Positions 8,340-51,154 of a DNA stretch of 64,000 bases are shown here, in pieces. A program made the position numbers and the translations under genes. Numbering within the stretch: position 1 is the stretch's first letter; each line of letters opens with the position of its first letter. This DNA comes from a phage. The stretch lies in sequence record PZ026127.1; one strand, written 5' to 3'. Below the pieces are notes generated by a model that was given only the letters and a program-made list of their open reading frames with translations, did no database searches and was not told the DNA's origin.

Positions 8340-8368
8340 GTTTACAACGCCTTTAAACATGATACTAT
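8340..8368 (+). promoter_or_regulatory. T4-type early promoter cassette
   Basis: GTTTAC, 17-nt spacer, TACTAT, then AGACCTATCAACTA and a GAGGA Shine-Dalgarno. Confidence 0.6.
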
Positions 8369-8397
8369 AGACCTATCAACTACATGAGGAAATAAAA

Positions 8398-8787
8398 ATG
8401 GAAATCGGTAAAACTTATGAACTTCGTCCTGAATGCATTAAAGACTTTATTGAAATGGACGAATATGAAAATAATAAAAGCATGGTCGGCCTTATCCAAG
8501 ACAACGGCGGTTGGTTTGAAGTAAAGGATATGGTGACTATGGATGGCGACAAATTTGTGACTGAAATCGAATGCGCCAACGGCGAGATTTATAATGAAGT
8601 TGGGTTGGTGCCAAATTATTTTGAGTTGCATGAAGACGAGTTCTATTGCTTCCGTGAATATGTTGTGGAAGATAAAGAAATCGATGAGCCTATTGCTAAG
8701 GCCGGTGTGACTCAAATCCATTGCATTGTCACCGAACAGAACGTTGACCAAATCATTGAACTTTTGCAAAAAACTTTTAAGGCCTAA
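8398..8787 (+). CDS. hypothetical protein (129 aa)
   Basis: ORF with Shine-Dalgarno directly after an early promoter; no recognisable domain. Confidence 0.6.
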   Translation: MEIGKTYELRPECIKDFIEMDEYENNKSMVGLIQDNGGWFEVKDMVTMDGDKFVTEIECANGEIYNEVGLVPNYFELHEDEFYCFREYVVEDKEIDEPIAKAGVTQIHCIVTEQNVDQIIELLQKTFKA

Positions 8788-8788
8788 T

Positions 8789-9049
8789 ATGACTAAAGAT
8801 GATTTCCTGGATGCAGTAGAAAAAGCCAGTGAGAAATTTGAAGTGATGGGTGTACGAGTTCATAAAGACCGAAATTACGGGCTCGATATCCAAACTTATT
8901 CATTATGGCTTGTAGGTGAACATAGTCTTGTAACCACCTTAGTTATGGGTGTTGATGCCCAACCTTTACTGGTTAAATTTAGAAGTATGGAAAAAGCTAC
9001 CAAAGAAATGATTAAACTTGGTAAATGGCTTGATAAAATTCAAAAATAA
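8789..9049 (+). CDS. hypothetical protein (86 aa)
   Basis: ATG 8789 one nt after the upstream stop (coupled); track start 8726 is an overlapping extension. Confidence 0.5.
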   Translation: MTKDDFLDAVEKASEKFEVMGVRVHKDRNYGLDIQTYSLWLVGEHSLVTTLVMGVDAQPLLVKFRSMEKATKEMIKLGKWLDKIQK

Positions 9050-9051
9050 AT

Positions 9052-9080
9052 GTTTACAACGCCTTTAAACATGATACTAT
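9052..9080 (+). promoter_or_regulatory. T4-type early promoter cassette (near-identical copy of 8340-8368)
   Basis: GTTTACAACGCCTTTAAACATGATACTATAGACCTATCAACTAATGAG duplicated. Confidence 0.6.
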
Positions 9081-9112
9081 AGACCTATCAACTAATGAGT
9101 GAGGAAAATAAA

Positions 9113-9340
9113 ATGGCTAAGGTTAATATTGATATCGTTGATTTTGAATACACTTACGAAGTTATCCGTAATCGTTATCCTTCTTTAGTTATGACCCATA
9201 TTAAAGATACTCAATTCTGTAGTATGCAAATTGAAGTCCAAGGTCCTCTTGAAGACCTTACCCGCTTTATGGCTGACGAGTATTGTGACGGTATGCACCC
9301 GGAAGACGCTAAATTTTATATGGGCTTAATTCAAAAATAA
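9113..9340 (+). CDS. hypothetical protein (75 aa)
   Basis: ATG 9113 preceded by GAGGAAAA; track start 9095 lies inside the leader. Confidence 0.55.
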
Positions 9341-9370
9341 GTTTACACCAGGCTATGGTAGTGATACTAT
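9341..9370 (+). promoter_or_regulatory. T4-type early promoter cassette
   Basis: GTTTAC, 18-nt spacer, TACTAT; the -10 sits in the loop of stem GGCTAT/ATAGCC. Confidence 0.55.
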
Positions 9371-9395
9371 AGCCTTATCAACTAAGGAGAATAAA

Positions 9396-11084
<1,689 letters not shown>

Positions 11085-11145
11085 AAATTCAAATAATCTG
11101 TACTCTGTTTTTGGTTATTATGGTCGGGCTGAATTTGGTGCTATA

Positions 11146-11439
11146 ATGAGAGTCTGTAGAGTTGTTAACAAGTATAAAGAAGATTTTGATGTCAACATCC
11201 AACGTGGAACTATGTGGGGTAATCCATTTAAAGATGGAACCCGCGAGGAAAACATCAAGAACTTTAAAGAATACTTTATTGCTAAAATAAAATCGGGCGA
11301 AATTAAAAGAGAACATCTTGAAACCCTTAGAGGTATGCGTATAGCGTGTACCTGTAAACCTAAGGACTGTCATGGGGATGTGATAGCCTTGATTGTTAAC
11401 AAACTTTTCAAAGACACGTTCTCATTAGAAGACCTATAA
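11146..11439 (+). CDS. hypothetical protein, possibly DUF4326-like (97 aa)
   Basis: ORF between td and nrdA; GNPF motif recalled for DUF4326; no clear Shine-Dalgarno, start uncertain. Confidence 0.45.
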   Translation: MRVCRVVNKYKEDFDVNIQRGTMWGNPFKDGTREENIKNFKEYFIAKIKSGEIKREHLETLRGMRIACTCKPKDCHGDVIALIVNKLFKDTFSLEDL

Positions 11440-11475
11440 ATATCAGTCCATGCTTAACAGGTTCTATGATAGAAT
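11435..11475 (+). promoter_or_regulatory. late (TATAAATA) plus middle (MotA box) promoters upstream of nrdA
   Basis: TATAAATA 11435-11442; TGCTTAA 11451-11457, 12-nt spacer, TAGAAT 11470-11475. Confidence 0.5.
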
Positions 11476-11505
11476 AATTGTAGAACCTAACATATTGAGG
11501 AAATT

Positions 11506-13761
11506 ATGCAAGTACAAAAAAGTAGTGGTGTATCCCAAGATTTTGACGCACAAAAAATTATTAAAGTTCTGACTTGGGGCTGTGAAGGAACCCAAATCGA
11601 CCCCTATGAATTATACGAAGAAATCAAATCTCATCTTCGTGATGGTATGACTACCAAAGATATCCAAAATCTGACTGTTAAGGTAGCAGCCAACCTTATT
11701 TCAGTTGAAGAGCCTGATTACCAATATGTTGCTGCAAAGCAATTGATGTTTGCACTGCGTAAAGAAGTTTATGGCCAGTTCGAACCACGTAGCTTTATCG
11801 ACCATATTTCCTATTGTGTTAACGAAGGTAAATATGACCCTGAATTGCTGTCTCGATATTCTGCAGAAGAAATTACTTTCTTAGAATCTCATATCAAGCA
11901 TGAACGTGACTTTGAATTGACCTATGCAGGTGCGATGCAGCTGAAAGAGAAATATCTGGTTAAAGATAAGACTACGGGTAAAATCTACGAAACCCCTCAG
12001 TTCGCTATCATGTGTATTGGCATGGCCTTACACCAAGAAGAGCCAGGTAATCGTTTGGCACATATTATTCGTTTTTATGATGCTGTAAGTACCCGTCAGG
12101 TTTCATTACCAACTCCTATTATGGCTGGAGCACGTACACCTACCCGTCAATTTAGTTCTTGTGTGGTTATTGAAGCAGGCGACTCACTGAAATCTATTAA
12201 CAAAACTGCTAACTCAATAATTGAATACATTTCTAAACGTGCAGGTATTGGTATCAACGTTGGTATGATTCGTGCTGAAGGTTCTCGTATTGGCATGGGT
12301 GAAGTCAAACATACTGGCGTTATTCCATTCTGGAAACATTTCCAGACTGCTGTTAAATCATGTTCACAAGGTGGAATCCGTGGCGGCGCTGCTACTGCTT
12401 ATTATCCTATTTGGCATTTGGAAGTTGAAAATCTGCTCGTTCTGAAAAACAACAAAGGCGTAGATGAGAACCGTATTCGTCATATGGACTACGGAATCCA
12501 GATGAACGACCTTATGATGGAACGTTTCGGTAAAAATGATTACATCACGCTGTTTAGTCCTCATGAAATGGGTGGTGAGCTTTATTATTCTTATTTCGAA
12601 GACCAAGACCGTTTCCGTGAATTGTATGAAGCAGCTGAAAAAGACCCTAGTATTCGTAAGAAACGTATTAAAGCACGTGACCTCTTCGAATTGTTCATGA
12701 CCGAACGTTCAGGCACTGCACGAATTTATCCTCAGTTCGTTGATAACACTAACAACTTCACACCATTTATTCGTGAAAAAGCTCCTATTCGACAGAGCAA
12801 CTTGTGTTGTGAAATTGCTATCCCGACTACTGACGTGAATAGTCCGGACGCTGAAATTGGTTTGTGTACGTTGTCTGCATTCGTATTGGATAACTTCGAT
12901 TGGCAGGACCAAGACAAAATCAACGAGCTCGCTGAAGTCCAGGTACGTGCACTTGATAACCTATTGGACTACCAAGATTATCCTGTTCCTGAAGCTCTGA
13001 AGGCCAAGAAACGTCGTAATCTAGGTGTTGGTGTTACTAACTACGCCGCTTGGTTGGCAAGCAACTTTGCTTCTTATGAAGACGCTAATGATTTAACTCA
13101 TGAACTGTTTGAGAGATTACAATATGGACTTATCCGAGCATCAATCAAGTTGGCCGAAGAAAAAGGACCTTGCGAGTATTATTCAGACACTAAATGGTCT
13201 CGAGGCGAATTACCTATCGACTGGTACAATAAAAAGATTGACCAAATCGCAGCCCCTAACTATGTTTGTGACTGGACGTCGTTGCGGGAAGACTTGGCTA
13301 AACATGGCATCCGTAATAGCACATTATCAGCACTTATGCCGTGTGAATCAAGCAGCCAGGTTTCCAACTCTACAAACGGTATCGAACCTCCACGTGGTCC
13401 GGTAAGTATTAAAGAATCTAAAGAAGGTAACTTCCGTCAGGTAGTTCCTAATGTAGAACATAACCAAGGACTCTACGATTACGCTTGGAGCCTCGCTAAG
13501 AAAGGTAATAAACCTTATCTTACCCAAGTGGCAATAGCGTTGAAATGGGTGTGTCAATCAGCATCAGCGAATACATATTACGACCCGCAGATTTTCCCAA
13601 AAGGAAAAGTTCCGATGTCGGTAATGCTTGATGACCTGCTGTATTTCTGGTACTACGGCGGTAAGAACCTTTACTATCATAACACCCGTGATGGCTCTGG
13701 TACTGATGACTACGAAATCGAAACTCCTAAAGCCGACGATTGTGCAGCTTGTAAGCTTTAA
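11506..13761 (+). CDS. nrdA: aerobic ribonucleotide reductase large subunit
   Basis: 751 aa; class Ia RNR alpha motifs (ATP-cone N-terminus, SSCVVIEAGDSL, NLCCEIAIP, C-terminal CAACKL). Confidence 0.95.
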   Translation: MQVQKSSGVSQDFDAQKIIKVLTWGCEGTQIDPYELYEEIKSHLRDGMTTKDIQNLTVKVAANLISVEEPDYQYVAAKQLMFALRKEVYGQFEPRSFIDHISYCVNEGKYDPELLSRYSAEEITFLESHIKHERDFELTYAGAMQLKEKYLVKDKTTGKIYETPQFAIMCIGMALHQEEPGNRLAHIIRFYDAVSTRQVSLPTPIMAGARTPTRQFSSCVVIEAGDSLKSINKTANSIIEYISKRAGIGINVGMIRAEGSRIGMGEVKHTGVIPFWKHFQTAVKSCSQGGIRGGAATAYYPIWHLEVENLLVLKNNKGVDENRIRHMDYGIQMNDLMMERFGKNDYITLFSPHEMGGELYYSYFEDQDRFRELYEAAEKDPSIRKKRIKARDLFELFMTERSGTARIYPQFVDNTNNFTPFIREKAPIRQSNLCCEIAIPTTDVNSPDAEIGLCTLSAFVLDNFDWQDQDKINELAEVQVRALDNLLDYQDYPVPEALKAKKRRNLGVGVTNYAAWLASNFASYEDANDLTHELFERLQYGLIRASIKLAEEKGPCEYYSDTKWSRGELPIDWYNKKIDQIAAPNYVCDWTSLREDLAKHGIRNSTLSALMPCESSSQVSNSTNGIEPPRGPVSIKESKEGNFRQVVPNVEHNQGLYDYAWSLAKKGNKPYLTQVAIALKWVCQSASANTYYDPQIFPKGKVPMSVMLDDLLYFWYYGGKNLYYHNTRDGSGTDDYEIETPKADDCAACKL

Positions 13762-13814
13762 TAAAATCTGATTATAATTGACTCATGGATGAGTCACTAA
13801 CAAATGAGAATAAC

Positions 13815-14993
13815 ATGTCTACAGTTTTTAATACCACCCCAGTTGATGTTTTAGTCGAACCGATGTTCTTTGGTTCAGGATTGGGTATTGCCCGTTATGA
13901 TATCCAACGTCATAAAGTATTCGAAGAGCTTTGTGAAAAGCAGTTGAGTTTTTTCTGGCGTCCAGAAGAAGTCAACTTGATGATGGATGCTGCTCAATTT
14001 AATAAGCTTCCACAATTCCAACAAAATATTTTTACCAATAACCTGAAGTATCAATCACTTCTGGATAGTATCCAAGGACGTGCTCCTTCTGCTGCACTTC
14101 AAGCCTTGATTTCAGACCCTAGCCTTGATACATGGGTGGCTACATGGACCTTTAGTGAGACTATTCACTCTCGTTCATATACCCATATCATGCGTAACCT
14201 CTATACAGACCCGTCAAAGGTATTTGATGAAATTCTGTTAGATGACGCTATTATGAAACGTGCCGAATCTATTGGTCGTTATTACGACGACGTTATTGAG
14301 AAAACTCGCTATTGGCAGAATGCTAAAGCTGATATCGAATACCAAAAAGAAATTAATGCAGACGAAGACGATATTGAAGATGCTATTGAGCATGAGATGT
14401 ATTGGAAGCGTGAGCTAATGAAATCCCTTTACCTTTGCCTTCATGTAATCAACGCATTGGAAGCTATTCGTTTTTATGTATCTTTCGCATGCACCTTTAA
14501 CTTCCATAAAAACATGGAAATCATGGAAGGTAATGCTAAGATTATGAAGTTCATTGCACGTGATGAACAGCTTCACCTTAAAGGTACTCAGTACATTATT
14601 CGTCAACTCCAACTTGGTACTGACGGTGACGAATGGGTTAAAATTGCTCAAGAGTGTGAACAAGAAGCAGTTGATATTTTCATGGAAGTTAACCGTCAAG
14701 AAAAAGAATGGGCTGCTCATCTGTTCAAAGATGGTACTTGCCCTGGATTAAATACTCAGAACATGGGTGCTTTTGTCGATTACCTGACAGTTTCTCGTAT
14801 GAAGCAATGTGGCTTACCGTGTCCTATTACTGATGCTCCTGCCCGCCATCCTTATCCTTGGATTCGCGAATACCTGAACTCTGATGCTGTACAGGCTGCT
14901 CCTCAGGAAGTGGAAATCAGTTCTTACCTTGTAGCACAAATTGATAACGATGTCGATGAAAAAGTAATGGCATCGTACAAGAAATATTTTTAA
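13815..14993 (+). CDS. nrdB: aerobic ribonucleotide reductase small subunit (uninterrupted, no intron)
   Basis: di-iron/tyrosyl-radical R2 motifs (WTFSETIHSRSYTHI, EAIRFYVSFA, ARDEQLHLKGTQYII); start set at MSTVF (13815), track start 13785 possible. Confidence 0.9.
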   Translation: MSTVFNTTPVDVLVEPMFFGSGLGIARYDIQRHKVFEELCEKQLSFFWRPEEVNLMMDAAQFNKLPQFQQNIFTNNLKYQSLLDSIQGRAPSAALQALISDPSLDTWVATWTFSETIHSRSYTHIMRNLYTDPSKVFDEILLDDAIMKRAESIGRYYDDVIEKTRYWQNAKADIEYQKEINADEDDIEDAIEHEMYWKRELMKSLYLCLHVINALEAIRFYVSFACTFNFHKNMEIMEGNAKIMKFIARDEQLHLKGTQYIIRQLQLGTDGDEWVKIAQECEQEAVDIFMEVNRQEKEWAAHLFKDGTCPGLNTQNMGAFVDYLTVSRMKQCGLPCPITDAPARHPYPWIREYLNSDAVQAAPQEVEISSYLVAQIDNDVDEKVMASYKKYF

Positions 14994-14998
14994 GGAAT

Positions 14999-15020
14999 GG
15001 GGCTTCGGCCCCTTATTGCT
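14999..15020 (+). terminator. CUUCGG hairpin after nrdB (weak U-tract)
   Basis: GGGGCTTCGGCCCC then TTATTGCT; the track ATG at 14997 lies inside this hairpin. Confidence 0.5.
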
Positions 15021-15434
15021 ATGAAAGAAATCGCAGACGAATTTAGCTTTATCAAGTACGTCACCCTAGAACTCCAAGATGACGCCAGCATTGCTCCACT
15101 CACAGTACCAAATAAACAAAATGTCATATATGCTATAGCGGTTGATGATATACTAGTCTACATCGGGAAGACTAAAAATCTTCGTAAGCGCATCAACTAC
15201 TACCGAACCGCTATTAATCGTAAGGACCAAACGTCAGATTCGACCAAGTCCATTCTGATTCATGAAGCATTAATGGCAGGTAAAAAGGTAGAGTTCTATG
15301 CACGGCAGTGCTTTAATCTGTCGATGACTAACGAACTTGGAACTATGTCAGTTGAGACCATGTCTCTTGAAGAGCCAATGTTCATAAAGAAATTTAATCC
15401 ACCTTGGAATACCCAACATAGGATAAAGCAATGA
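15021..15434 (+). CDS. denA: endonuclease II (GIY-YIG)
   Basis: 137 aa from MKEIADEF; GIY-YIG core NVIYAIAVDDILVYIGKTKNLRKRINYYRT; follows nrdB as in T4. Confidence 0.88.
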   Translation: MKEIADEFSFIKYVTLELQDDASIAPLTVPNKQNVIYAIAVDDILVYIGKTKNLRKRINYYRTAINRKDQTSDSTKSILIHEALMAGKKVEFYARQCFNLSMTNELGTMSVETMSLEEPMFIKKFNPPWNTQHRIKQ

Positions 15435-16579
15435 TTGAATTATATGATAACTTGATGGCCCTGGTTAAAAACTCGACTAAATCTAAGTTCTTCTTTAAAG
15501 ACTTTCAGAGTGCGCTAGGAGTCAACTATCGCATCTTTAGTTATAACTATGCATCGTACAGTGATTGGTTGGAAGACGGCGCACTAGAGTGCCGAGGCAT
15601 TATGTTTGAAATGGACGAGAACGGTCCAGTACGTATTGCTGCTCGTCCTATGCAAAAGTTCTTTAACCTTGACGAAAACCCTCTGACCATCGGTCTAGAT
15701 TTGTCACCAGAAAATATTGACCTCGTAATGGCTAAGGAAGATGGTTCTCTGATTTCTACATTCATGGACCGACAGTATCTTTCTGTTAAATCTAAAGGCT
15801 CTATCCATTCATCAATGGTGCATGATTCTTTACGGTTCCTTCGTCTCCCTGAGAACGAGGCTTTTGCCGCACGTCTAGAAGAAATCACCAAAGCTGGGTA
15901 TACCTGCAACCTTGAATATGTTGCACCTACCAACCGTATCGTGCTGGCTTACCAAGAAACAAATCTCATCCTGTTGAACGTTCGTAATAATGAAACCGGT
16001 GAATATATTCCATATGCGGAATTGTTTAAGGACGGCGCACTGCGTAAGCATTTGGTTGAAAGCTATGAGCTCGCTGAGGGCGATTTCGTAGAAAACATCC
16101 GTAAGCAGGAAGGCATTGAAGGTTTCATCTTTGTACTGAAAGATGGTACGTTCTTTAAACTCAAAACCGCCTGGTACAGTGCACTGCATCATACCAAAGA
16201 TTCCATTAACAACAACGAACGTTTGTTTGAAGTTGTAGTGGCTGGTGGAACTGATGACCTTCGTGGTCTGTTCAGTACAGATTCCTTTGCTATCGAGAAA
16301 ATCGATGCCTTTGAACGCATCCATTTAGATTACCTAGAACAATCATTAGCCTTGTTAGAAGCAGCTTACTCTCAACTCAAAGGTCGCGACCGTAAAGACT
16401 ATGCCGTTACTGGACAGCTAATCCTTAAGGACTTCCCAGGGTTGTTCTCTATTCTTATGCAGGCGTACGTAGGCGGTATTAATTATGATACGGTCATGGA
16501 CCAGATTAACTCTGTGTTCTTGAAAAATCATAAGGCCCAAATCCCTGAAAAATATTTGAAAGAAATTGTGGTAGAGTAG
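15431..16579 (+). CDS. rnlA: RNA ligase 1
   Basis: 382 aa; YRIFSYNYASYSDWL, ECRGIMFE, KEDGSLIS (ligase lysine motif), FVAPTNRIVLAYQE match T4 Rnl1. Confidence 0.93.
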   Translation: MIELYDNLMALVKNSTKSKFFFKDFQSALGVNYRIFSYNYASYSDWLEDGALECRGIMFEMDENGPVRIAARPMQKFFNLDENPLTIGLDLSPENIDLVMAKEDGSLISTFMDRQYLSVKSKGSIHSSMVHDSLRFLRLPENEAFAARLEEITKAGYTCNLEYVAPTNRIVLAYQETNLILLNVRNNETGEYIPYAELFKDGALRKHLVESYELAEGDFVENIRKQEGIEGFIFVLKDGTFFKLKTAWYSALHHTKDSINNNERLFEVVVAGGTDDLRGLFSTDSFAIEKIDAFERIHLDYLEQSLALLEAAYSQLKGRDRKDYAVTGQLILKDFPGLFSILMQAYVGGINYDTVMDQINSVFLKNHKAQIPEKYLKEIVVE

Positions 16580-16629
16580 TTTACATCTCCTCATGACGTG
16601 TTAGTATAGACTTACCAACTAATGAGGAG
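16579..16629 (+). promoter_or_regulatory. early promoter cassette with flanking inverted repeat
   Basis: GTTTAC, 17 nt, TAGTAT; CTCCTCAT (16587-16594) pairs with ATGAGGAG (16622-16629) around the -10. Confidence 0.55.
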
Positions 16630-16637
16630 AAAACAAA

Positions 16638-17138
16638 ATGAATATGCAAATGATTACTAACGAAATGGTTGTTAAGGCTTTTGGTGACTCTACTGACGGC
16701 ATCCAAGTTTTTAAAGGTTCTCGTGCAGTAGGTTACCTGACCGATCTTCGTGTCACTTTAGCTAAAAATGCTAAAAAGAAAATCAAGCAAAAAGAATACT
16801 CTACCCGTTATGCAGAAGAAAAGCGTGAAGCCATGCCGGAAGCTGTTAACTCTATGGTTGAGTTTCTCCAAAATAACCTTTCCAAGTACGATGCCGAGGT
16901 ATTCATTAATATTAGCCAACCTAATGTTAAAATCTCAGGCATCACTTTCTATTTGATTTGTGACCCATTAAGCGACAAGTTTAATCGCCTTGGCATTTCA
17001 AGTCCTTACCATACTGCTGAAGAATTATGTTTTATGTTTGAAACGTATAAAATTCAGTGTGAAAATCCTAAAACGGTTCTTATTAATTCCCTGTCACGTG
17101 ATGACATCATCGAGATTATTACCAAATGTCTAAATTAA
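16638..17138 (+). CDS. alc: Alc (inhibitor of host transcription on cytosine DNA)
   Basis: 166 aa; similarity to T4 Alc from memory and position after rnlA. Confidence 0.75.
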   Translation: MNMQMITNEMVVKAFGDSTDGIQVFKGSRAVGYLTDLRVTLAKNAKKKIKQKEYSTRYAEEKREAMPEAVNSMVEFLQNNLSKYDAEVFINISQPNVKISGITFYLICDPLSDKFNRLGISSPYHTAEELCFMFETYKIQCENPKTVLINSLSRDDIIEIITKCLN

Positions 17139-17479
17139 GTATTTACCTTTTAGCTGGAGCCATTGCAGTAGGTGCTTATGGTTTTATTTCGTATCAATCA
17201 AGTCGTATTGATACCCTTACTGAAGAACTGAAAACAACCCAGCAAACGGCCAAACAGAATGCCGAAGCCGTAGATGACCTACGTGGCCAATACTCTGATA
17301 TTGAATTCCGTACTACTGAAATGAATGCCCGAATGGATAAAATTAAGGTAGAAAATGAAAAGCTCCGTAAAGATTCGAAGAAGGCGCACGTGGTGGCAAG
17401 TAAGCCAGGATTGGTCGAAAAACAAATCAACAAGTCCTTCGATTCCTTTACAGAAGACTTCAGGAGCATTACAGAATGA
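17126..17479 (+). CDS. pseT.3: i-spanin (Rz-like inner-membrane spanin)
   Basis: 117 aa; N-terminal transmembrane helix IYLLAGAIAVGAYGFISY then coiled-coil; overlaps the downstream lipoprotein gene. Confidence 0.7.
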   Translation: MSKLSIYLLAGAIAVGAYGFISYQSSRIDTLTEELKTTQQTAKQNAEAVDDLRGQYSDIEFRTTEMNARMDKIKVENEKLRKDSKKAHVVASKPGLVEKQINKSFDSFTEDFRSITE

Positions 17480-17766
17480 TTAAATTATCTGTGGTAGTAT
17501 TATCTATTGGCTTGTTAGTTGGATGTGCCCAGGACATCCCTGTAGTGCCTAAGCAACAACTACATCCTTCATGGCCACAACCTATTGCCAAACATAATGT
17601 TAAATGGCAGGTTAAGGTAATCGATGGTAAAGCTTGGGTTGGAATGCCATTTGAAGATTCCCAAGAACATCGTATTTGGTTGAATGACGTAAAAAGATAT
17701 GTACAAGACCAGAAATCTATGTTATGTTATTATCGTTCTGGACTAAAAGAGGAGAAGTGCAAATGA
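17476..17766 (+). CDS. pseT.2: o-spanin (Rz1-like outer-membrane lipoprotein)
   Basis: 96 aa; signal peptide with lipobox LLVGC, Pro-rich mature part. Confidence 0.7.
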   Translation: MIKLSVVVLSIGLLVGCAQDIPVVPKQQLHPSWPQPIAKHNVKWQVKVIDGKAWVGMPFEDSQEHRIWLNDVKRYVQDQKSMLCYYRSGLKEEKCK

Positions 17767-17870
17767 TTGAAGCGTGTACTGATGGATGGGATATCGTTCG
17801 ATTCGGTTTTGTCTGCTTTTGTTTTGGAATTCTGATTAGTATATGTATTGGCGGTCTTTTCGGAAAGTAG
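17763..17870 (+). CDS. possible 35-aa membrane peptide
   Basis: ATG overlaps o-spanin stop (ATGA); MIEACTDGWDIVRFGFVCFCFGILISICIGGLFGK is hydrophobic; below the ORF-track length cutoff. Confidence 0.3.
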   Translation: MIEACTDGWDIVRFGFVCFCFGILISICIGGLFGK

Positions 17871-17899
17871 TTTACAAACTCATGGGAGCAGAGTATAAT
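17870..17899 (+). promoter_or_regulatory. early promoter cassette
   Basis: GTTTAC, 18 nt, TATAAT; -10 inside stem-loop GGGAGCA/TGCTCC. Confidence 0.55.
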
Positions 17900-17933
17900 G
17901 CTCCTACGGATTATAAAAATCGAGGAAATTATT

Positions 17934-18412
17934 ATGACTTTACGTGATAACAGTTTTGTGGCTAAGCCTGAATACATTTCAGGCGTTAAATCTCCTGTAT
18001 TACAAAAGCTCTTAAAATTAGGGTCCTGTGCAAGTACACCAATTGAAAAGAAGGCAACTTTCGATTTTGCTTGGGCTATGGTAGACGGTATTGATGTAGT
18101 AAGACAGGTATCTTTTTATGCTCCAGGGTCTATTGAGCCTTCGCAGATTATTAATTTGAATGGAAGTAATTATATTACCGTCCAACAGTGGTATCGTATG
18201 ATGCGCCCGGTTTGGGAATACCCTGAATTCATTGAAGAGTACAATGAAAAAGAACGTATTCGCGAGCTAGTAAAAAGTTTTGAATATGCGGCTAAACGCC
18301 ATGGACAAATGCAATCCGCAGTAACCCTCGGTGATGTTCCTGAAAGTGTTGCTTACGAATCAGGTAAAACCCTTAAAACTTGCCGTGAAGAACTTTATAA
18401 GGAACTTGGTGT

Positions 18413-18416
<4 letters not shown>
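17934..18416 (+). CDS. hypothetical protein (160 aa)
   Basis: ATG 17934 after CGAGGAAA Shine-Dalgarno; track start 17898 lies inside the -10. Confidence 0.6.
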
Positions 18417-19616
<1,200 letters not shown>

Positions 19617-19617
<1 letters not shown>

Positions 19618-19814
19618 TGAATAATATCGAAAAGATTTTTCGTACAATCGAAGAAATTGAAAAACGTAAATGCTTTTTCTTCGGTGTATGGCCTTTAACT
19701 GATGGACGTATTGGCCTGGATGTTATGGACTATAAAGATGAAGACAAGGTCGATGGTGGTATTTTTAAATCCGCTCCTGAACTCCTTGCCTTCTTGGAAG
19801 AACATTATGTATAA
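19617..19814 (+). CDS. hypothetical protein (65 aa)
   Basis: ATG overlaps pseT stop (TAATG). Confidence 0.45.
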
Positions 19815-20022
19815 CAAACACCACGAAGTTGAAGAAGAAGCTTATAAAGAGCTTCAGAAACTGGTAGGTCAGAATATGTCTCCTACCCTCATTAACTCAC
19901 TAGCAGCCCTTCGTAATGACCTCAATGAACGTTACAAAGGCGAGTACTATGTTGAGTTCGTTCCTCTGACTGAAGTCGTTGACCGGTTTATTGTTAACGT
20001 GAAGGTCCATACAGTACACTGA
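19807..20022 (+). CDS. hypothetical protein (71 aa)
   Basis: ATG 19807; the longer 19702 track ORF is an extension. Confidence 0.45.
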   Translation: MYNKHHEVEEEAYKELQKLVGQNMSPTLINSLAALRNDLNERYKGEYYVEFVPLTEVVDRFIVNVKVHTVH

Positions 20023-20029
20023 GGTAATT

Positions 20030-20308
20030 ATGTTCCCTACTTATTCTGAAATTGTTAAAGTAGTTTTTAGTCAGATTGTATCTGATTACCTATACGAACC
20101 CGTCGACACGTCGACTGAACTAAAGGTGCATGGTCGTTTGTCTGCTATTCTGGAAATCATGTTCCCGGATGCAGTTGATGCAATCACTGTTCAACTCACG
20201 CCTGGTGCAGCAATTGCAATTGTCCCATTTAAAATTGATAACCACATTTTGGCTATTTCATGCAAAATGGACTTCCAGAAACAAACGGTAGTTGTCGAAG
20301 CAATTTAA
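20030..20308 (+). CDS. hypothetical protein (92 aa)
   Basis: ORF with GAGGT Shine-Dalgarno. Confidence 0.55.
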   Translation: MFPTYSEIVKVVFSQIVSDYLYEPVDTSTELKVHGRLSAILEIMFPDAVDAITVQLTPGAAIAIVPFKIDNHILAISCKMDFQKQTVVVEAI

Positions 20309-20310
20309 GT

Positions 20311-20349
20311 GTTTACACTATGGTAGGACTGTGGTATAGTAGTCCTACC
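20311..20349 (+). promoter_or_regulatory. early promoter embedded in stem-loop
   Basis: GTTTAC, 18 nt, TATAGT; stem GGTAGGACT/AGTCCTACC with the -10 in the loop. Confidence 0.6.
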
Positions 20350-20370
20350 GAAACAAATGAGGAAATCGAA

Positions 20371-20925
20371 ATGAGCCAGTTCTTTGAAGAGCGTAAGTTT
20401 TATAAGTTCGTTGGTGAATACACTAAAAACAAATTCACTAATAACGGTGCTTATGGCCTCAATACAGCTTTTGCTAAGTATGTGGGTATGAATCCGTTTG
20501 AAGTTGAAATTGATTACCATAACGGGAAGCCACGTGTAAGCCGAATTCGTGTATATGACGAGATGATGTTTGTCGACCCGAGCAAAATGACAGGTAATCC
20601 TAATGATGCAAATAGTGTTCTTTTTAATTCATCAGGCTTTTTTAGCCATGAATTCGAATACTTTATCGAAGTGGTAGACCCTAAAGAACTGCAGTTAGTT
20701 TTCCAGAACCCTGAAATCAAACCTATTAAAACTCCGGCCGATTGGAAAGTGCTTATTGTTAAAAATGGTAAGATTGAAGTTCATTCTCGCCATAACACAA
20801 AGGAACAAGCCGATCGTCAGGCTGAAGAGCTTTTGACTAATTCGTTCCAACAAGTGTGTTATATTGTTAAAGGCGACGTTACCCAAGCTACCACTACCAA
20901 ACAACTTAAGTTGGAGACCATCTAA
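20371..20925 (+). CDS. hypothetical protein (184 aa)
   Basis: ATG 20371 after AATGAGGAAA; track start 20260 overlaps the promoter. Confidence 0.6.
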   Translation: MSQFFEERKFYKFVGEYTKNKFTNNGAYGLNTAFAKYVGMNPFEVEIDYHNGKPRVSRIRVYDEMMFVDPSKMTGNPNDANSVLFNSSGFFSHEFEYFIEVVDPKELQLVFQNPEIKPIKTPADWKVLIVKNGKIEVHSRHNTKEQADRQAEELLTNSFQQVCYIVKGDVTQATTTKQLKLETI

Positions 20926-21161
20926 TGCTGAGCGAACAACCTATTACTGTAGAGCAGTTCCAAGTTAAAGTTAAAGAATTTGCTCAGGCCCTGATTAATA
21001 AGGTTTCTGTACATTTTCCTGATGCAACTCTGCGAGTAATCCAGGAAACACCACGTGCGGTATTGGTTATAGTTAATCTTAAAAATGGCGGCCAGGTTAC
21101 CCAATTGAAACTTGGTTCTGATGGTCTGGTCGAAGCGCAGCGGGTGTATATTGATGCTTAA
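20925..21161 (+). CDS. hypothetical protein (78 aa)
   Basis: coupled ORF. Confidence 0.5.
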   Translation: MLSEQPITVEQFQVKVKEFAQALINKVSVHFPDATLRVIQETPRAVLVIVNLKNGGQVTQLKLGSDGLVEAQRVYIDA

Positions 21162-21492
21162 TTTAAAACCGGCAGTTAATGCCACCTTACAATCTGACGA
21201 AGACGGAGACCATCGAGGTCTCTCTGAAAAGGCTACTCAGTACATCAAAGACCTTTTTAAACTGAGTGAAGATTTCCAAAGCATCCATACTTCAACATAT
21301 GATGCTGTGCTGGCTACTGTTCTTCCGGTTGAAATTGGTGATCGAATTCCGGCAGCGGTATTTTTCGATAAACAAAAACGCTTCCCAGACGGTTATGGTA
21401 TATTAACCTCACGTGTGAAATCTATCACTAAACTTCGTACCGATTTATATCGTGTCGAAACCAATAATACAGCTTATCTAGTGGTGATGTAA
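21154..21492 (+). CDS. hypothetical protein (112 aa)
   Basis: ATG 21154 overlapping the upstream stop. Confidence 0.5.
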   Translation: MLNLKPAVNATLQSDEDGDHRGLSEKATQYIKDLFKLSEDFQSIHTSTYDAVLATVLPVEIGDRIPAAVFFDKQKRFPDGYGILTSRVKSITKLRTDLYRVETNNTAYLVVM

Positions 21493-22342: not shown

Positions 22343-22365
22343 GCATCCTAATTGAAGGAAACAAA

Positions 22366-22599: not shown

Positions 22600-22601
22600 T
22601 T

Positions 22602-22928: not shown

Positions 22929-22959
22929 TAATCTATCAACAAAACAATATGGATTAAAT

Positions 22960-45921: not shown

Positions 45922-47055
45922 ATGGCTTATACCGTAGATATGGCTCCTTTGGCGGCTACGGCCGTTATTGGAGCAACAACCAATTTCACTGCGACCGGTT
46001 CCGGTGCTGCAGCTGAAGGTACCGAATCATTTGTCTGGACCGTTGATGGCGTTCCTCAATCTTCTGTGACTGCTGCAATGGATTATGTTGCTGTTGGCCC
46101 AGCAGGCAGCAAGACTATTAAAGTTGTTGCAACAACTACACCAGCGGACGGCGAACCAGAAACAGCTGAAGCCGAAACAACTTTAACTATCCAGAATAAA
46201 ACAATGCCTGCTATTACATTGACTTTAGACCCTGCCTCTGTTTCTAAAGAAGTCGGCCAATCTCAAGTTGTTACTGCTAACGTGACGGGTGCGCCTGCTG
46301 GTGCAACAATTGCTTATGTTTGGAAACGTAACACTAGCGTAATCCCAGGTCAAACTGGTAAAACTATTACTGTTACCGAATCAGCAGAAGCAAATTATAC
46401 ATTGAACTGCGAAGTTACTGTTTCTGCACCCGATTATAATAATGGCACCGCAACTAAAGGAGCGGCGGTAACTTTTGTTAAGAAAACTATGTCGGGTGTT
46501 TCTGTTAATTTAACGCCAGCCTCTATTAATGTACCTGAAGGAACTCCGGCTTCTTTTAAAGCGGACGTAGTCGGCGCTCCTGCTGGTGCTACTTTTGCCT
46601 ATTCTTGGAAGAAAGACGGTTCTCCTGTAGTTGGCACCACGGATACTCTAGCAATCGATACAAGCACTGAAGGTTCACAGGTTATTGAAGTTTCTGTTGT
46701 GGTTTCGGCGACTGATTATAACCCGGTGACTGTTACAAAAACTGGTAATGTAACAATCACGGCTAAAGTCGCTCCTGAACCAGAGGGCGAATTACCTTAC
46801 GTTCATCCGCTACCAGTTCGCAATTCGGCTTATATCTGGTGTGGTTGGTGGGTTATGGATGAAATCCAGAAAATGACTCTTGAAGGCAAAGACTGGAAAA
46901 CAGATGACCCGGATAGCCCGTATTATTTGCACCGATACACGCTTCAAAAAATGATTACCGACTATCCAGAGGTTGATGTACAAGAATCTCGTAATGGTCG
47001 AATTATTCATCGCACCGCTTTAGAAGCTGGTATTATATACGATTACGTTTACTAA
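45922..47055 (+). CDS. hoc: Hoc (highly immunogenic outer capsid protein, Ig-like repeats)
   Basis: 377 aa; repeated Ig-like segments (VTANVTGAPAGATIAYVWK / FKADVVGAPAGATFAYSWKKDG) and conserved C-terminal capsid-binding region. Confidence 0.85.
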   Translation: MAYTVDMAPLAATAVIGATTNFTATGSGAAAEGTESFVWTVDGVPQSSVTAAMDYVAVGPAGSKTIKVVATTTPADGEPETAEAETTLTIQNKTMPAITLTLDPASVSKEVGQSQVVTANVTGAPAGATIAYVWKRNTSVIPGQTGKTITVTESAEANYTLNCEVTVSAPDYNNGTATKGAAVTFVKKTMSGVSVNLTPASINVPEGTPASFKADVVGAPAGATFAYSWKKDGSPVVGTTDTLAIDTSTEGSQVIEVSVVVSATDYNPVTVTKTGNVTITAKVAPEPEGELPYVHPLPVRNSAYIWCGWWVMDEIQKMTLEGKDWKTDDPDSPYYLHRYTLQKMITDYPEVDVQESRNGRIIHRTALEAGIIYDYVY

Positions 47056-47059
47056 TTAT

Positions 47060-47078
47060 GGGCCTTGCGGCCCATTTT
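47060..47078 (+). terminator. rho-independent terminator after hoc
   Basis: GGGCCTTGCGGCCC then ATTTTG. Confidence 0.6.
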
Positions 47079-47158
47079 GCATTAAAGTACAAAATTACTG
47101 TTTACAAGTTAAAAATCCTATGTTAAGATGGGTTTACCAACTCAACGAGAGAATTGTT

Positions 47159-47368
47159 ATGGATAAGGTTAAAGTACATTTTTTACACGAATCTGGGTTG
47201 AATTTTATAGAAATTGCTAAAAAAATGGGCGGGACCGCTAAGGATATGGCCAAAGCATGGGTTGATGTAGAACAAGCCAAGGTCAAATTTAAAGCGAAAG
47301 AAAAGGTTGTTTATCGTAAAAGATTGAACAACAAGGTTCGGCGCAAAGCGCGTTCTGGTTCAAAGTAA
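47159..47368 (+). CDS. hypothetical small basic protein, possible HTH (69 aa)
   Basis: ATG 47159 after GAGAGAATTG; LNFIEIAKKMGGTAKDMAKAW looks helix-turn-helix-like. Confidence 0.45.
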   Translation: MDKVKVHFLHESGLNFIEIAKKMGGTAKDMAKAWVDVEQAKVKFKAKEKVVYRKRLNNKVRRKARSGSK

Positions 47369-47396
47369 TATGCTTTAAATTTAGGTGTGATATAAT
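47369..47396 (+). promoter_or_regulatory. MotA-dependent middle promoter upstream of rnlB
   Basis: ATATGCTTTA (MotA box), 13 nt, TATAAT. Confidence 0.55.
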
Positions 47397-47482
47397 GGGT
47401 CTAGGTCCTTCCGTTAAACCATTTGGCTTGGTGACAGAAGACTACTAGCTCTTCTATTTAATTATATTTATTATGGTGATTT

Positions 47483-48490
47483 ATGTTCAAGAAATATAGC
47501 AGTCTCGAAAACCACTACAACAATAAGTTTATCGAAAAACTCCGTACTAATGGTTTGACTGGTGGTGAATGGGTAGCACGTGAAAAGATTCACGGGACCA
47601 ACTTTAGTTTAATCATAGAACGTGACGCAGTCACATGCGCCAAGCGCACTGGCCCTATCCTCCCTGCTGAAGATTTCTATGGTTATGAAATTGTACTTAA
47701 GAACTATGCTGATTCTATTAAATCTGTTCAACATCTAATTGAATCGATTAATTACCAGTCATATCAGATTTACGGTGAATTCGCTGGGCCAGGTATCCAG
47801 AAGAATGTGGACTATGGTGATAAAGACTTTTATGTGTTCGATATCCGAGTTACTAAGGAAGATGGTACTGAATCTGTTCTAACCGATACATTGATGGAAG
47901 CCTTTTGTATTATTCATAAGTTTAAGGTAGCTCCATGTCTGGCTACTGGTAGCTTTGAAGACCTTATTAAATTACCTAATGACTTTGATTCGGTTATTCC
48001 TGATTATAATTTTGCGGTGGATAACGCTGGCCTAACTATTGCAAACTCGACAGACTTTATTCCTAAGGTAGAAGGTAAAGTATTCACGGCTGAAGGCTTT
48101 GTACTTAAACCCGATATTCCTATCTGGCTTCCTAATGGAAATCGTGTAGCGATTAAATGCAAGAACTCTAAATTCAGCGAGAAGAAAAAGTCTGATAAGC
48201 CTATTAAGGTGGCTGTAGTTTTATCCCAAGATGATATGGATTTGCTGTGGCAATTCACTGATTATGTGACAGTTAACCGTATCAATAACGTTATCAGTAA
48301 GATTGGTGAAGTATCTAAAAAGGATTTTGGAAAGGTAATGGGCTTGACAGTCCAAGATATCTTAGAAGAAGCTGCCCGTGAAGAATTAGAATTAACTGAT
48401 GCAGAAAATCCTGTTGAAGTTAAAAAGCAGCTCGTTGAGTGTGTAAAAGATACCCTACGAGCCGTATGGATTGAACTAGTATCCAAATAA
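47483..48490 (+). CDS. rnlB: RNA ligase 2
   Basis: 335 aa; [26 protein letters not shown] (ligase lysine motif KxHGxN), [21 protein letters not shown] match T4 Rnl2. Confidence 0.95.
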
Positions 48491-48498
48491 ATGATAAA

Positions 48499-48519
48499 GG
48501 GACCTTACGGTCCCTTTTT
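48499..48519. terminator. bidirectional terminator between rnlB and the gene 24 paralog
   Basis: GGGACCTTACGGTCCC then TTTTT; the minus-strand stop overlaps the U-tract. Confidence 0.65.
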
Positions 48520-49801
48520 AGTTTTTATCCAATGGGGGAAGTTTTACACCAAGATAAGAACTCAATTGACTTTGATTAGCCATTTTATCCATATCCGCCC
48601 CATCGATAATACGAGCTTCTTTGTCGTCTTTAGCGACAGTATAAGGATTCGCAGTCAATGCATATCGAGCCAATAAAGATATGGTAGGTTGCAATGAATC
48701 CGGGTCTACAATAACCTTGAATTCACCTACTGAAGTATCACCTTCATCATCAACCTCTTCGAGCCCTTCCGTATAAGGCGCATAATACAAAGATGCGACC
48801 GTCTGCCCTTCACCCATCCAGGCATTTACACCGACAATAACATAATCACACGGACTATTCATATCAGCATAAAGTGGTAGACCATTTTTAAGTATACCAT
48901 AAGCTAATTCGTCTTGGTCTTCTTTTTTCTCAACCCAACCGGATGCAGCGAGAATAGCAGCACAACGAGAAGAAGCTACTGCATAAGTACCTGCAAACGA
49001 AGTCTGGCGTTGAACAGCAGAATTCATTTCACACATATAGTAATACAAGGTACGCGCTCGGTCTTGGGCGTTATCATATTGTGGGTCTGTTAAGTTCAAG
49101 ACACCTTTCTCAGAAACTCCTTCGACTTTAAAACGAGAACTTACCGTAATTAAGGACTGTAATACGTCTTTATTAATTTCTTCAGCCATTTGAATAGCCA
49201 AAATATTGTCTATAAAGTCTGGTGCATTAAACCCGTTGGATTCTAAATCCTGGGCCAGTTCCACAGTCAAAGAAGTTTTAAGTTTACGCGATTTAACTTC
49301 AGTCTGCCACTTATCAATGCGGAACCCTGCTTCAGCAATCTCAGGATGGCCTTTTTCAAATTTATTGGTAAAGGCTGCATCAGACATCATACGAATATGG
49401 CCTGCTGCAATAGCTTCTGAAATAACTTCACTCAAATCGGTTTCAGTTGTTCCTGCAAACGGAGAAGCTTCTAATACCTTGAAAACCACACTTTCGAATT
49501 GGAACATATCACCAACAGCATATGCTTCATCTTTATCGGTGAACTCTGGAATGTTTTTACGTTCAAACATACCAATTTCGCCCGCAAAAGTGGCTCCACC
49601 GAGATAAGTCATTTTATCGTCTGGGTTTAAAACACGGACACCATATAATGCTGCAACAGGTTGAGTAGTTTTTTGTTCAGCAACAAGGGCTTTAAAAATT
49701 CTTTTATTAGTTGCCTGGGTATATGAAAGAAGATTAGGACGGGCGACCTGGTTGGCCGCCGTCAAAGTTGATTCTTGTATTAATGCATTAATCTTTTTCA
49801 T
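48518..49801 (-). CDS. head vertex protein gp24 paralog (divergent second copy)
   Basis: 427 aa; shares the gp24 core (SRKLKT.LTVELAQD.ESNGF.AP.F...EINKDVLQSLITVS, VIVDPDSLQP, YTVAKDDKEAR) but diverges elsewhere. Confidence 0.85.
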   Translation of the reverse strand: MKKINALIQESTLTAANQVARPNLLSYTQATNKRIFKALVAEQKTTQPVAALYGVRVLNPDDKMTYLGGATFAGEIGMFERKNIPEFTDKDEAYAVGDMFQFESVVFKVLEASPFAGTTETDLSEVISEAIAAGHIRMMSDAAFTNKFEKGHPEIAEAGFRIDKWQTEVKSRKLKTSLTVELAQDLESNGFNAPDFIDNILAIQMAEEINKDVLQSLITVSSRFKVEGVSEKGVLNLTDPQYDNAQDRARTLYYYMCEMNSAVQRQTSFAGTYAVASSRCAAILAASGWVEKKEDQDELAYGILKNGLPLYADMNSPCDYVIVGVNAWMGEGQTVASLYYAPYTEGLEEVDDEGDTSVGEFKVIVDPDSLQPTISLLARYALTANPYTVAKDDKEARIIDGADMDKMANQSQLSSYLGVKLPPLDKN

Positions 49802-51082
49802 TTATGCCTCGTAAATAATTGGAGGAAGTTTAACACCAAGCAGATAAGACATGTTACTCTGGCCTGCCATTAAATCCATATTAGTTGCGTCTATAACACG
49901 AGCTTCTTTATCATCTTTAGCAACGGTATACGGGTTTGCTGAAAGTGCATAACGAACCATCAGAGAAATAGCCGGTTGCAAACTATCAGGGTCTACAATA
50001 ACTTTATAGGCGCCAACATGTTCTTGGTCGTCTAAATCCAGACCTTCGGTATACGGAGCATAGAAAATAGAACCAACTACTTCATTACCACCGTAATCTT
50101 CTTTAACGCCTACGATAACATAATCTAAAGGACTATTAACATCACAGAATACAGGCAATCCGTTAATCAAATAACCATAAGCAGTTTCTGGGAGCCAAGC
50201 TTCATCTTCAGGTTTGTGTTTCAACCAACCTGAACCAGCGAGCATCGCAGCAACACGACTAGATGCGACAACAAACGTACCTGAATAAGAAGTGGTTTTC
50301 TGAATTTCAGAATTCATCTCACAAACCATTTCGTATAATTTACGTGCAGATTCTGGAGCACTGTCATAAGACAAATCGACAATACCGTTATCAGACACAC
50401 CAGTAACTTTATAGCGTTTAGATACAGTTATTAGAGACTGCAGAACGTCTTTATTAATTTCATCAGCCATTACAGTGGCTAAAAGGTCTTCTAAGAACGC
50501 AGGGGCGTCGAAGCCATTAGATTCCATGTCTTGGGCTAGTTCTACAGTCAAAGCGGTTTTAAGCTTACGGGACTTAACAGGGGCGTTCCATTTATTAACC
50601 TGGAATACTGCATTGCTAATTTCAACATCACCTGCTTCGAATTTTTCTGTGTGAGCCGCATCAGGAACCAGACGACATGTTAATGACACTAAACCTTCTT
50701 GAAGAGCATCAGCCAATTCTGTGGCGCTAGTGGACGCGAGTGGGCTTGCTTTAAGAGCCTTATAAACCACATTCTGGTACTTGAAATATTCACCCTGAGC
50801 AATCGCCTGGGCCTTATCTGTGAGTTCTGGGATAGTTTCACGGTCTTTAGAACCAACTTCACCACCATAAGAGGCACCTGTCTGGAAACTAAATTCATTA
50901 TCAGGGGTAAGATATTTGACACCATACAGTGCAGCAATAGGCTGGCTAGTACGTTGTTCGGCGATAATATCACGGTAAATCAATTTGGTTGTAGCACGGG
51001 TCAAAGCAACAAGATTAGGGCGACCCAATGAGTTGCTGGAAGTAGTTGTTGACTCGCGCAGTAATTCGTTAATCTTTGCCAT
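49802..51082 (-). CDS. 24: head vertex protein gp24
   Basis: 426 aa; MAKINELLRESTTT...GRPNLVALTRATTKLIY matches the T4 gp24 N-terminus. Confidence 0.93.
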   Translation of the reverse strand: MAKINELLRESTTTSSNSLGRPNLVALTRATTKLIYRDIIAEQRTSQPIAALYGVKYLTPDNEFSFQTGASYGGEVGSKDRETIPELTDKAQAIAQGEYFKYQNVVYKALKASPLASTSATELADALQEGLVSLTCRLVPDAAHTEKFEAGDVEISNAVFQVNKWNAPVKSRKLKTALTVELAQDMESNGFDAPAFLEDLLATVMADEINKDVLQSLITVSKRYKVTGVSDNGIVDLSYDSAPESARKLYEMVCEMNSEIQKTTSYSGTFVVASSRVAAMLAGSGWLKHKPEDEAWLPETAYGYLINGLPVFCDVNSPLDYVIVGVKEDYGGNEVVGSIFYAPYTEGLDLDDQEHVGAYKVIVDPDSLQPAISLMVRYALSANPYTVAKDDKEARVIDATNMDLMAGQSNMSYLLGVKLPPIIYEA

Positions 51083-51110
51083 TGCGCTTTCCTTATTGAG
51101 GGTATATGTT

Positions 51111-51118
51111 TATTTATA
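51111..51118 (-). promoter_or_regulatory. late promoter (TATAAATA on minus) for gene 24
   Basis: plus-strand TATTTATA about 30 nt upstream of the gp24 ATG. Confidence 0.55.
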
Positions 51119-51124
51119 AAAGTT

Positions 51125-51154
51125 GTTTACAGCAAGATTCTCACATGTTACTAT
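51125..51154 (+). promoter_or_regulatory. early promoter cassette
   Basis: GTTTAC, 18 nt, TACTAT, then AGACCTATCAAAACATGAGGAG leader. Confidence 0.55.

Follow-up and report, generated by a model that had tools for sequence, protein, structure and literature searches.

The 64,000-nucleotide stretch of phage DNA analyzed here (sequence record PZ026127.1; the window, taken at its full length) carries a dispersed family of short cassettes, each placed 5′ of an early gene, that combine a predicted promoter with a Shine–Dalgarno (SD) sequence and, in part of the copies, with an inverted repeat written into the promoter itself. We deal with the identity of these cassettes and with their hairpins, whose position follows the distance to the upstream gene. 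Bases 8000–25000 of the window match the Dhakavirus genomes PSD9, WG01, QL01 and JS98 at 92–98% identity, and on this likeness the window is that of a Dhakavirus, a T4-type coliphage resembling JS98 and WG01. The early-gene direction is the + strand, along which lie, in this order, rnh, dsbA, 33, 59, 32, frd.2-frd, td, nrdA/B, denA, rnlA, alc, pseT, cd, 31, rIII, 30.9-30.1, the ligase gene, three alt copies and alt.-3; 3′ of alt.-3 come baseplate and head genes, with short early islands interspersed (24.3-rnlB and an orf173-like gene). The predicted cassettes, named below by P and their position, and the hairpins beside them are as follows.

5072–5134, + strand: early promoter cassette 5′ of rnh; −35 at 5072, −10 at 5095–5100, ATG at 5132; divergent intergenic region with no co-directional gene upstream.
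5103–5127, + strand: inverted repeat ACCTCT/AGAGGT in the leader of the 5072 cassette, covering the SD.
8304–8323, + strand: canonical terminator after gene 32, GGGAAGAC-TTCG-GTCTTCCC and then a T-run; ends 16 nt 5′ of the −35 of P8340.
8340–8400, + strand: early promoter cassette 5′ of frd.2; −10 at 8363–8368, ATG at 8398.
9052–9115, + strand: early promoter cassette 5′ of frd.3; ATG at 9113; no hairpin in this genome (the orthologues in JS98 and dhaeg have a 10-bp stem, AGGTCTATAG/CTATAGACCT).
9341–9398, + strand: early promoter cassette 5′ of frd.1; embedded AGGCTAT/ATAGCCT at 9350–9375, 7 bp (11 pairs when folded), −10 partly in the loop.
16579–16640, + strand: early promoter cassette 5′ of alc; spacer anti-SD TCTCCTCAT pairs with ATGAGGAGA at 16586–16630 (9 bp).
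17870–17936, + strand: early promoter cassette 5′ of an ORF226-like gene; embedded GGAGCA/TGCTCC at 17885–17904 (6–8 pairs), −10 TATAAT in the loop.
20311–20373, + strand: early promoter cassette after cd.3; embedded 9-bp repeat GGTAGGACT/AGTCCTACC at 20322–20349, −10 in the loop.
24106–24127, + strand: canonical terminator after 30.9, ATGGGACTC-TTCG-GAGTCCCAT and then a T-run; ends 27 nt 5′ of the −35 of P24154.
24154–24226, + strand: early promoter cassette 5′ of 30.8; −35 GTGTAC; spacer ATCTCCGG pairs partly with the SD region.
24597–24677, + strand: early promoter cassette 5′ of 30.7; embedded 12-bp repeat TTTGGTACAGGT/ACCTGTACCAAA at 24603–24639, −10 in the loop.
35024–35084, + strand: early promoter cassette 5′ of alt.-3; only a weak 6-bp spacer repeat, ACCACA/TGTGGT, at 35033–35048.
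47058–47075, + strand: terminator-like hairpin after hoc, ATGGGCC-TTGC-GGCCCAT and then TTTGCATT.
47100–47167, + strand: early promoter cassette 5′ of a 24.3-like gene (DUF2774); real ATG at 47165.
51125–51186, + strand: early promoter cassette 5′ of an orf173-like gene; real ATG at 51184; divergent intergenic region, no hairpin.

Over the 12 cassettes, an upstream terminator hairpin is present at three, an embedded repeat at five and a leader hairpin at one, and there is no convincing stem at 9052, 35024 or 51125.

On the + strand there are 10 matches to GTTTAC-N17/18-TAnnAT, where dinucleotide-preserving shuffles give 0.3 per strand, and on the − strand there is one. A two-block weight matrix trained on the cassette copies and run on both strands of the window recovers the 12 copies at 24–35 bits, all on the + strand; the next + strand site reaches 14 bits and nothing on the − strand reaches 12, including the lone strict match there (22246), which lies within a + strand open reading frame (ORF) and is at chance level. 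Run on JS98 (163.6 kb), the same matrix gives 40 sites on the early strand, none on the other strand and none in the late block at 72.6–106.2 kb, a result that makes the promoter model reliable for annotating Dhakavirus genomes. The copies share a layout consisting of an UP-like A/T tract, GTTTAC, 17–18 nt, TGn, TAnnAT, SD and ATG. The 20 nt 5′ of the −35 have an A/T content of 0.65–0.9 in 11 of the 12 copies, TGn stands in the register TG-N-TAnnAT in 10 (it is missing at 17870 and 47100), and the leader after the −10 runs for 19–43 nt to a GAGG-type SD and the ATG.

The existence of the family had been recognized in a preliminary description made from the letters of the DNA alone. Eleven of its 12 sites are real; it counted one site that is not a member, at 23757, and overlooked 47100, and its literal consensus, G(T/G)TTAC with TA(C/G/T)TAT, fits just 7 of those 12 sites. 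We rejected 23757 as it scores below 12 bits, has neither TGn nor an A/T-rich upstream tract, and is separated from the next ATG by as much as 184 nt. The long rIII-30.9 intergenic region in which it lies (23679–23940) varies among relatives, with 44 nt here versus 137 nt and a 69-nt insertion elsewhere. The near-identity reported for 8340 and 9052 is correct and amounts to 43 identical nucleotides. A leader sequence common to two cassettes was likewise correctly noticed but misplaced: the true positions of the 20-mer AAATAATACGAAAACAAACT are 24194 and 24637, against the 24190 and 24641 first given, and it is part of a 37-nt stretch of 89% identity common to cassettes 24154 and 24597. The genes that follow, 30.8 and 30.7, belong to different Pfam families; the similarity is therefore not the remnant of a gene duplication, and the shared repeat would be regulatory.

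T4 early promoters have been described as “UP/−35/TGn/−10” promoters with extra conserved positions (Hinton 2010, PMC2988021), and the promoters of the window show the same elements and the same strand restriction. Moreover, at the three window sites that the comparison with T4 covered, the matrix finds positional orthologues in the T4 genome, one downstream of cd.3 and one each in front of 30.8 and 30.7; the cd.3 promoter, the orthologue of P20311, is annotated in the T4 record as early promoter Pe133295, and the three T4 copies have hairpin designs in common with their window counterparts. The comparison of sequences supports the view that the repeated motif represents T4-type early promoters, presumably active in this phage from start sites close to those predicted. 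The Dhakavirus copies differ from T4 early promoters in that 6–7 of the 12 have in common an extended downstream box, AGACCTATCAACTA, 3′ of the −10, and in that the identity of some copies extends through the spacer, a sign of conversion between them.

The promoter early stem-loop (PeSL) elements are defined by similar parts: A/T tract, early promoter, SD and ATG, together with a stem-loop that takes one of five positions. They have been reported for RB49/phi1 and in a T4/PST-type form, with PeSL-like sequences mentioned for JS98 (Arbiol et al. 2010; Comeau et al. 2014; PMC2839356, PMC4122927). The window cassettes present the same composite, packed into some 100 bp from the upstream gene's stop codon onward, and match the published subclasses with a stem-loop 5′ of the −35, one between the two boxes, or one that overlaps the −10 (PMC2839356, PMC4122927). 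As with PeSL, they are concentrated in early ORF-rich regions and some flank swapped ORFs. Their consensus matches the PST/T4 PeSL type, TTTACW-N17-TAYWAT (PMC4122927). In contrast, they have no sequence homology to the RB49/phi1 elements, which have a near-perfect TTGACA-N17-TATAAT and polyG/polyC stems (PMC2839356, PMC4122927), whereas the window has GTTTAC as −35 and stems of mixed sequence. Judged by its anatomy, the cassette is a PeSL-like form of ordinary T4-type early promoters, that is, a regulatory cassette of a kind already known, as the preliminary description had supposed. Neither a spacing-dependent position of the hairpin nor an anti-SD subclass is described in the available portions of the PeSL papers (PMC2839356, PMC4122927); the spacing rule and the read-through-only geometry set out below modestly sharpen the known picture.

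The inverted repeats are real and promoter-specific. Summed over the window copies, the best inverted-repeat length is 81, against 62.4±3.2 in shuffles, and the three repeats originally quoted all exist and are somewhat longer than first given (9 bp at 20322–20349, 12 bp at 24603–24639 and 9 bp at 16586–16630). It could be argued that such repeats are functionless, by-products of a consensus that is itself self-complementary (the short palindrome CTATAG lies within TACTATAGACCT) and of the shared ancestry of duplicated promoters: spacers are common to several promoters, and half of the copies are without a significant stem. We consider this very improbable. When each spacer is paired with its own downstream segment and with the segments of other promoters, a design that excludes the effect of the self-complementary consensus, own pairings win both in the window (73 versus 57.6±4.1, P = 0.0016) and among the 40 JS98 promoters (255 versus 200±7.2, z = 7.7), although these permutation values are somewhat optimistic given that the promoters are related by duplication or conversion. 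Stem sequences also vary widely among promoters, and the repeats depend strongly on intergenic spacing, neither of which would be expected of functionless by-products.

Compensatory changes, between T4 and the window and between paralogues, tell against the same reading. The stem of the cd.3 promoter is GGTAGAGTT/AGCTCTACC in T4 and GGTAGGACT/AGTCCTACC in the window, with three pairs changed, all of which keep pairing. Across 14 related IMG/VR sequences the covariation score of this stem is 0.316, versus 0.221 when shuffled (0 of 500 shuffles reach 0.316); 16 cells are changed on both sides where 8.2 are expected, and every slid register scores lower. The sets of orthologues behind such scores are small, as single-protein searches for relatives reached almost only close Dhakavirus and T4 relatives. 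Among paralogous JS98 promoters, GGGACC/GGTCCC stands against GGGAGC/GCTCC, and a JS98 promoter paralogous to P17870, with its GGAGCA/TGCTCC, has GGGACC/GGTCCC, a compensatory change. More generally, spacers with AGGTCT, AGGCT or GGGCT go with discriminators that have AGACCT, AGCCT or AGCCC. The arms of the 30.7 promoter, GGTACAGG/CCTGTACC, are invariant from T4 to Dhakavirus, with both flanks variable. Several IMG/VR Dhakavirus contigs have TTTTAC instead of GTTTAC as the −35 of this promoter, the stem arms being invariant there too. An Rfam scan of the whole window found no family at gathering score.

The 3′ arms fall into two classes. In the first, the 3′ arm extends over the last part of the −10 and the discriminator, leaving the −10 in the loop; this class comprises 11 JS98 promoters and, in the window, 9341, 17870, 20311 and 24597. 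In the second, the 3′ arm lies over an SD 5–8 nt 5′ of the ATG, its partner being an anti-SD TCTCCT that closely follows GTTTAC; there are five strong members in JS98, and in the window 16579 and, weakly, 24154. Whether a promoter has an embedded repeat at all depends on the space in front of it. With a short gap defined as a −35 within 12 nt of the upstream stop codon, and a threshold of at least 7 bp, embedded repeats are found in 15 of the 26 short-gap promoters of JS98, in none of the 11 long-gap promoters and in none of the three without an upstream co-directional ORF (Fisher P = 3e-4). Canonical upstream terminators show the opposite distribution, with 6 of 11 long-gap versus 1 of 26 short-gap promoters (P = 1e-3). 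The 12 window cassettes follow the JS98 pattern: a terminator scan finds canonical CUUCGG-tetraloop terminators with T-runs just 5′ of P8340 and P24154 and a similar hairpin 5′ of P47100, all three overlooked previously, and the promoters of divergent regions, 5072 and 51125, have neither an embedded repeat nor an upstream terminator. These terminators (8304–8323, 24106–24127), a hairpin at 14999–15012 and six in JS98 are of the same type as the CUUCGG intrinsic terminators of T4 intergenic regions, with T-runs. The one at 14999–15012 (+ strand, GGGGC-TTCG-GCCCC) lies directly 3′ of nrdB, overlaps the start of denA and has no early promoter after it.

The dependence on spacing also bears on whether the repeats act as DNA. 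In the largest class the −10 sits in the loop with the arms symmetric around it, and the arms of P30.7 are conserved across genera, as might be expected if a cruciform or single-strand hairpin modulated open complex formation, or if the repeats were targets of a nuclease of the endonuclease VII type that stimulates recombination. A function intrinsic to the promoter should, however, be independent of the neighboring gene, yet embedded repeats are found at 0 of the 14 JS98 promoters that have a long gap or no upstream gene (Fisher P = 3e-4, as above), and the second class pairs the spacer with an SD 30–40 nt away, which makes sense for RNA but not for promoter melting. Furthermore, stems of 6–12 bp with loops of 8–27 nt extrude poorly as cruciforms. 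Action at the level of DNA therefore seems improbable to us.

All 5′ arms precede the predicted start site. RNA begun at the promoter's own start can therefore not form the hairpin, for which RNA reading through from upstream is needed, and it is probably on read-through RNA alone that the hairpins act. We consider it likely that the cassettes are σ70-dependent early promoters of a JS98-like T4-type phage, most of them fused to a hairpin of space-dependent type that acts on read-through RNA. Where the stop codon abuts the −35, the promoter spacer holds the 5′ arm, and the 3′ arm either falls in the discriminator, so that the loop contains the −10, or covers the SD of the following gene; where there is room of some 40–60 nt, the hairpin upstream is a separate terminator with a CUUCGG tetraloop and a T-run; and where there is no co-directional upstream gene, both types are absent. 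Embedded hairpins would thus replace a separate terminator where room is lacking. Possibly, the hairpin marks, attenuates or stabilizes the 3′ end of the upstream transcripts, so that each cassette insulates its own gene or genes from upstream expression; the position rule lends indirect support to termination or attenuation of incoming transcription.

Several observations weigh against this reading. The inverted repeat is above chance in only 5–6 of the 12 window copies, the remaining copies being at chance level; a good stem is missing at 9052, at 35024 and in 11 of the 26 short-gap JS98 promoters, and the stem has been lost in the IME08 orthologue of P20311. The start sites are predictions, placed by the usual spacing after the −10, and the relatedness of the promoters, mentioned above, makes the permutation values somewhat generous. 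Nor are the embedded hairpins canonical intrinsic terminators, a role that we rejected: none has a T-run and none appeared in the terminator scan. They differ from the T4 CUUCGG terminators in this respect and in their loops, which are of 8–27 nt because they hold the −10. Finally, occlusion of the SD does not extend to the promoters at large: over all JS98 promoters, the folding model shows no difference between read-through RNA and RNA with shuffled upstream sequence (means 0.44 and 0.47; Wilcoxon P = 0.40), which rules it out as the general role of the hairpins and confines the effect to a subset.

In that subset, to which alc belongs here, the hairpin may also block translation from read-through RNA. 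The probability that the alc SD is unpaired is 0.89 in the modeled transcript from its own promoter versus 0.28 in the read-through RNA (z = −2.5 against shuffled upstream sequence), and in JS98 it drops by more than half at 12 of 38 promoters, versus 3 with shuffled upstream sequence. A geometry that would occlude the ribosome-binding site is seen at P16579 (TCTCCTCAT/ATGAGGAGA), more weakly at P24154 and P5072, and in the five strong JS98 cases. The logic is that of the T4 genes e, soc, 49 and I-TevI, where hairpins that occlude the ribosome-binding site and have an embedded late promoter delay expression (Uzan and Miller 2010, PMC3014915): the 5′ arm precedes the internal start and the 3′ arm covers the SD, so that the long read-through RNA is predicted to be untranslatable and the RNA of the internal promoter translatable, here by modeling only. 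In contrast to the T4 genes, the internal promoter is early rather than late, and the timing would be the opposite, translation being confined to immediate-early transcripts.

It may well be, although we would not count on it, that throughout the Tevenvirinae early promoters double as insulators against read-through only, with the 5′ arm written into the spacer when space for a terminator is short, and with the RNA either ended or stabilized or its SD occluded. If so, no transcripts but their own immediate-early ones would serve for the translation of genes like alc, which would be the early-promoter equivalent of the late-promoter switch of e, soc and 49, and there would be a general rule by which selection on RNA structure shapes the spacer and discriminator of promoters. 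If the position rule holds, it would explain the conservation or covariation, in T4-type phages, of spacers and discriminators, which are ordinarily free to change, would give a simple and testable account of the insulation between early genes in so dense an arrangement, and may explain the separation of immediate-early from delayed-early expression.

We also compared the window with five relatives (WG01, JS98, IME08, dhaeg and ESCO10) for breakpoints of gene content, and found 13 non-redundant ORF-scale indel or replacement events with 22 junctions. In the GenBank record of ESCO10 (OM386655.1) the product names seem to be shifted against the genes: for example, “thioredoxin” is given for nrdA, nrdB and alc, and “tail completion protein” for the ORF in the place of uvsW. 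The events with a junction in a cassette are the following.

At the ATG after P8340: insertion of frd.2a.
From 8417: allele swap of frd.2.
From the ATG after P17870: swap of ORF226.
About 24230–24259 to 24598 (first base of P24597): allele swap of 30.8, bounded by P24154 and P24597, the clearest case.
Between the hoc hairpin and P47100: 2.3–2.6 kb insertion in dhaeg and ESCO10.

At the last of these sites (47064–47091), dhaeg (46871–49518), ESCO10 and KIT01 have two extra genes of opposite orientation exactly between the hoc terminator hairpin and P47100.

In RB49/phi1, PST/T4 and nt-1/KVP40, PeSL elements have been reported as sites of such exchange (Arbiol et al. 2010; Comeau et al. 2014; PMC2839356, PMC4122927), and the cassettes of the window could on that model be primarily recombination modules, at which homologous or site-specific exchange, including exchange via mini-circles, excises, inserts and swaps the ORFs that they flank; their place at module borders would then be accounted for. 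The 30.8 swap, bounded by cassettes that share the 37-nt stretch and its 20-mer, fits this model, as do the 43-nt exact repeat that flanks frd.2 and orf240 and the replacement of the P9052 spacer, in the window and in WG01, by a copy of the P8340 spacer, an instance of exchange that did take place between cassettes. Six of the 22 junctions fall in cassettes, an enrichment over a uniform null (P = 4e-4). However, 20% of gene starts carry a cassette, and against a null of gene boundaries there is no enrichment, either of junctions (6/22, P = 0.27) or of events (5/13, P = 0.53); a conserved regulatory island beside a fast-evolving ORF will mimic a junction in any alignment. Moreover, neither junction of 8 of the 13 events lies in a cassette (9640, 10220, nrdA.1, 21147–21491, 22046–22365, 30.1, the change in alt copy number and a SegE-like gene). 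The deletions that exchange between 8340 and 9052 or between 24154 and 24597 should leave were sought with two chimeric queries, and are not among the best 15 records for either; these best 15 hits all carry the module, as two aligned pieces. We therefore regard a primary role in recombination as rather unlikely. On the reading that we prefer, promoters with hairpins acting on read-through RNA, the conserved cassettes may also serve as patches of homology, through which alleles of the downstream ORF are sometimes exchanged and cassettes converted, a role that would be secondary; the gene-boundary result and the missing deletion products count against it as well.

The link of the cassettes to gene shuffling is accordingly weak. 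Unlike the PeSL association with exchange, the association with indels here does not exceed what any gene boundary would give, which tempers the idea that the cassettes drive gene shuffling. The earlier proposal that they mark the borders of accessory modules and act as shuffling cassettes is only partly supported: the five events at cassettes, among them the 30.8 swap bounded by two of them, speak for it, and on a preferential link to indels the uniform and the gene-boundary null give opposite answers. Nor do cassettes precede nearly every small ORF of unknown function, as had been stated: they directly precede 10 of 31 such ORFs and 12 of the 60 + strand genes, and they head runs of one to about eight genes rather than single ORFs.

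Some of the events away from the cassettes deserve a brief description. The small + strand ORFs at 21147–21491 and 22046–22365, which flank cd, have no Pfam match and no promoter cassette bounding either; WG01, JS98 and dhaeg lack the first, and every one of the five relatives lacks the second; both are clean insertions relative to most relatives. The SegE-like insertion is as follows.

51454–52125, + strand: GIY-YIG insertion, a 223-aa ORF with weak matches to SegE GIY-YIG, NUMOD3 and helix-turn-helix domains.

The orf173-like gene and gene 23 flank it, and JS98 and ESCO10 lack it, relative to which it forms a clean insertion of 666 nt; judging from these matches, it is probably a free-standing homing endonuclease gene. 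The three tandem alt paralogues (28912–35024, + strand; RNA polymerase ADP-ribosyltransferase) correspond to two copies in JS98, dhaeg and ESCO10 and to three in KIT01 and WG01; recombination between paralogues seems to be what alters the number of copies. On the − strand, at 48518–51082, are paralogues of gene 24 (capsid vertex), two in tandem, as in JS98.

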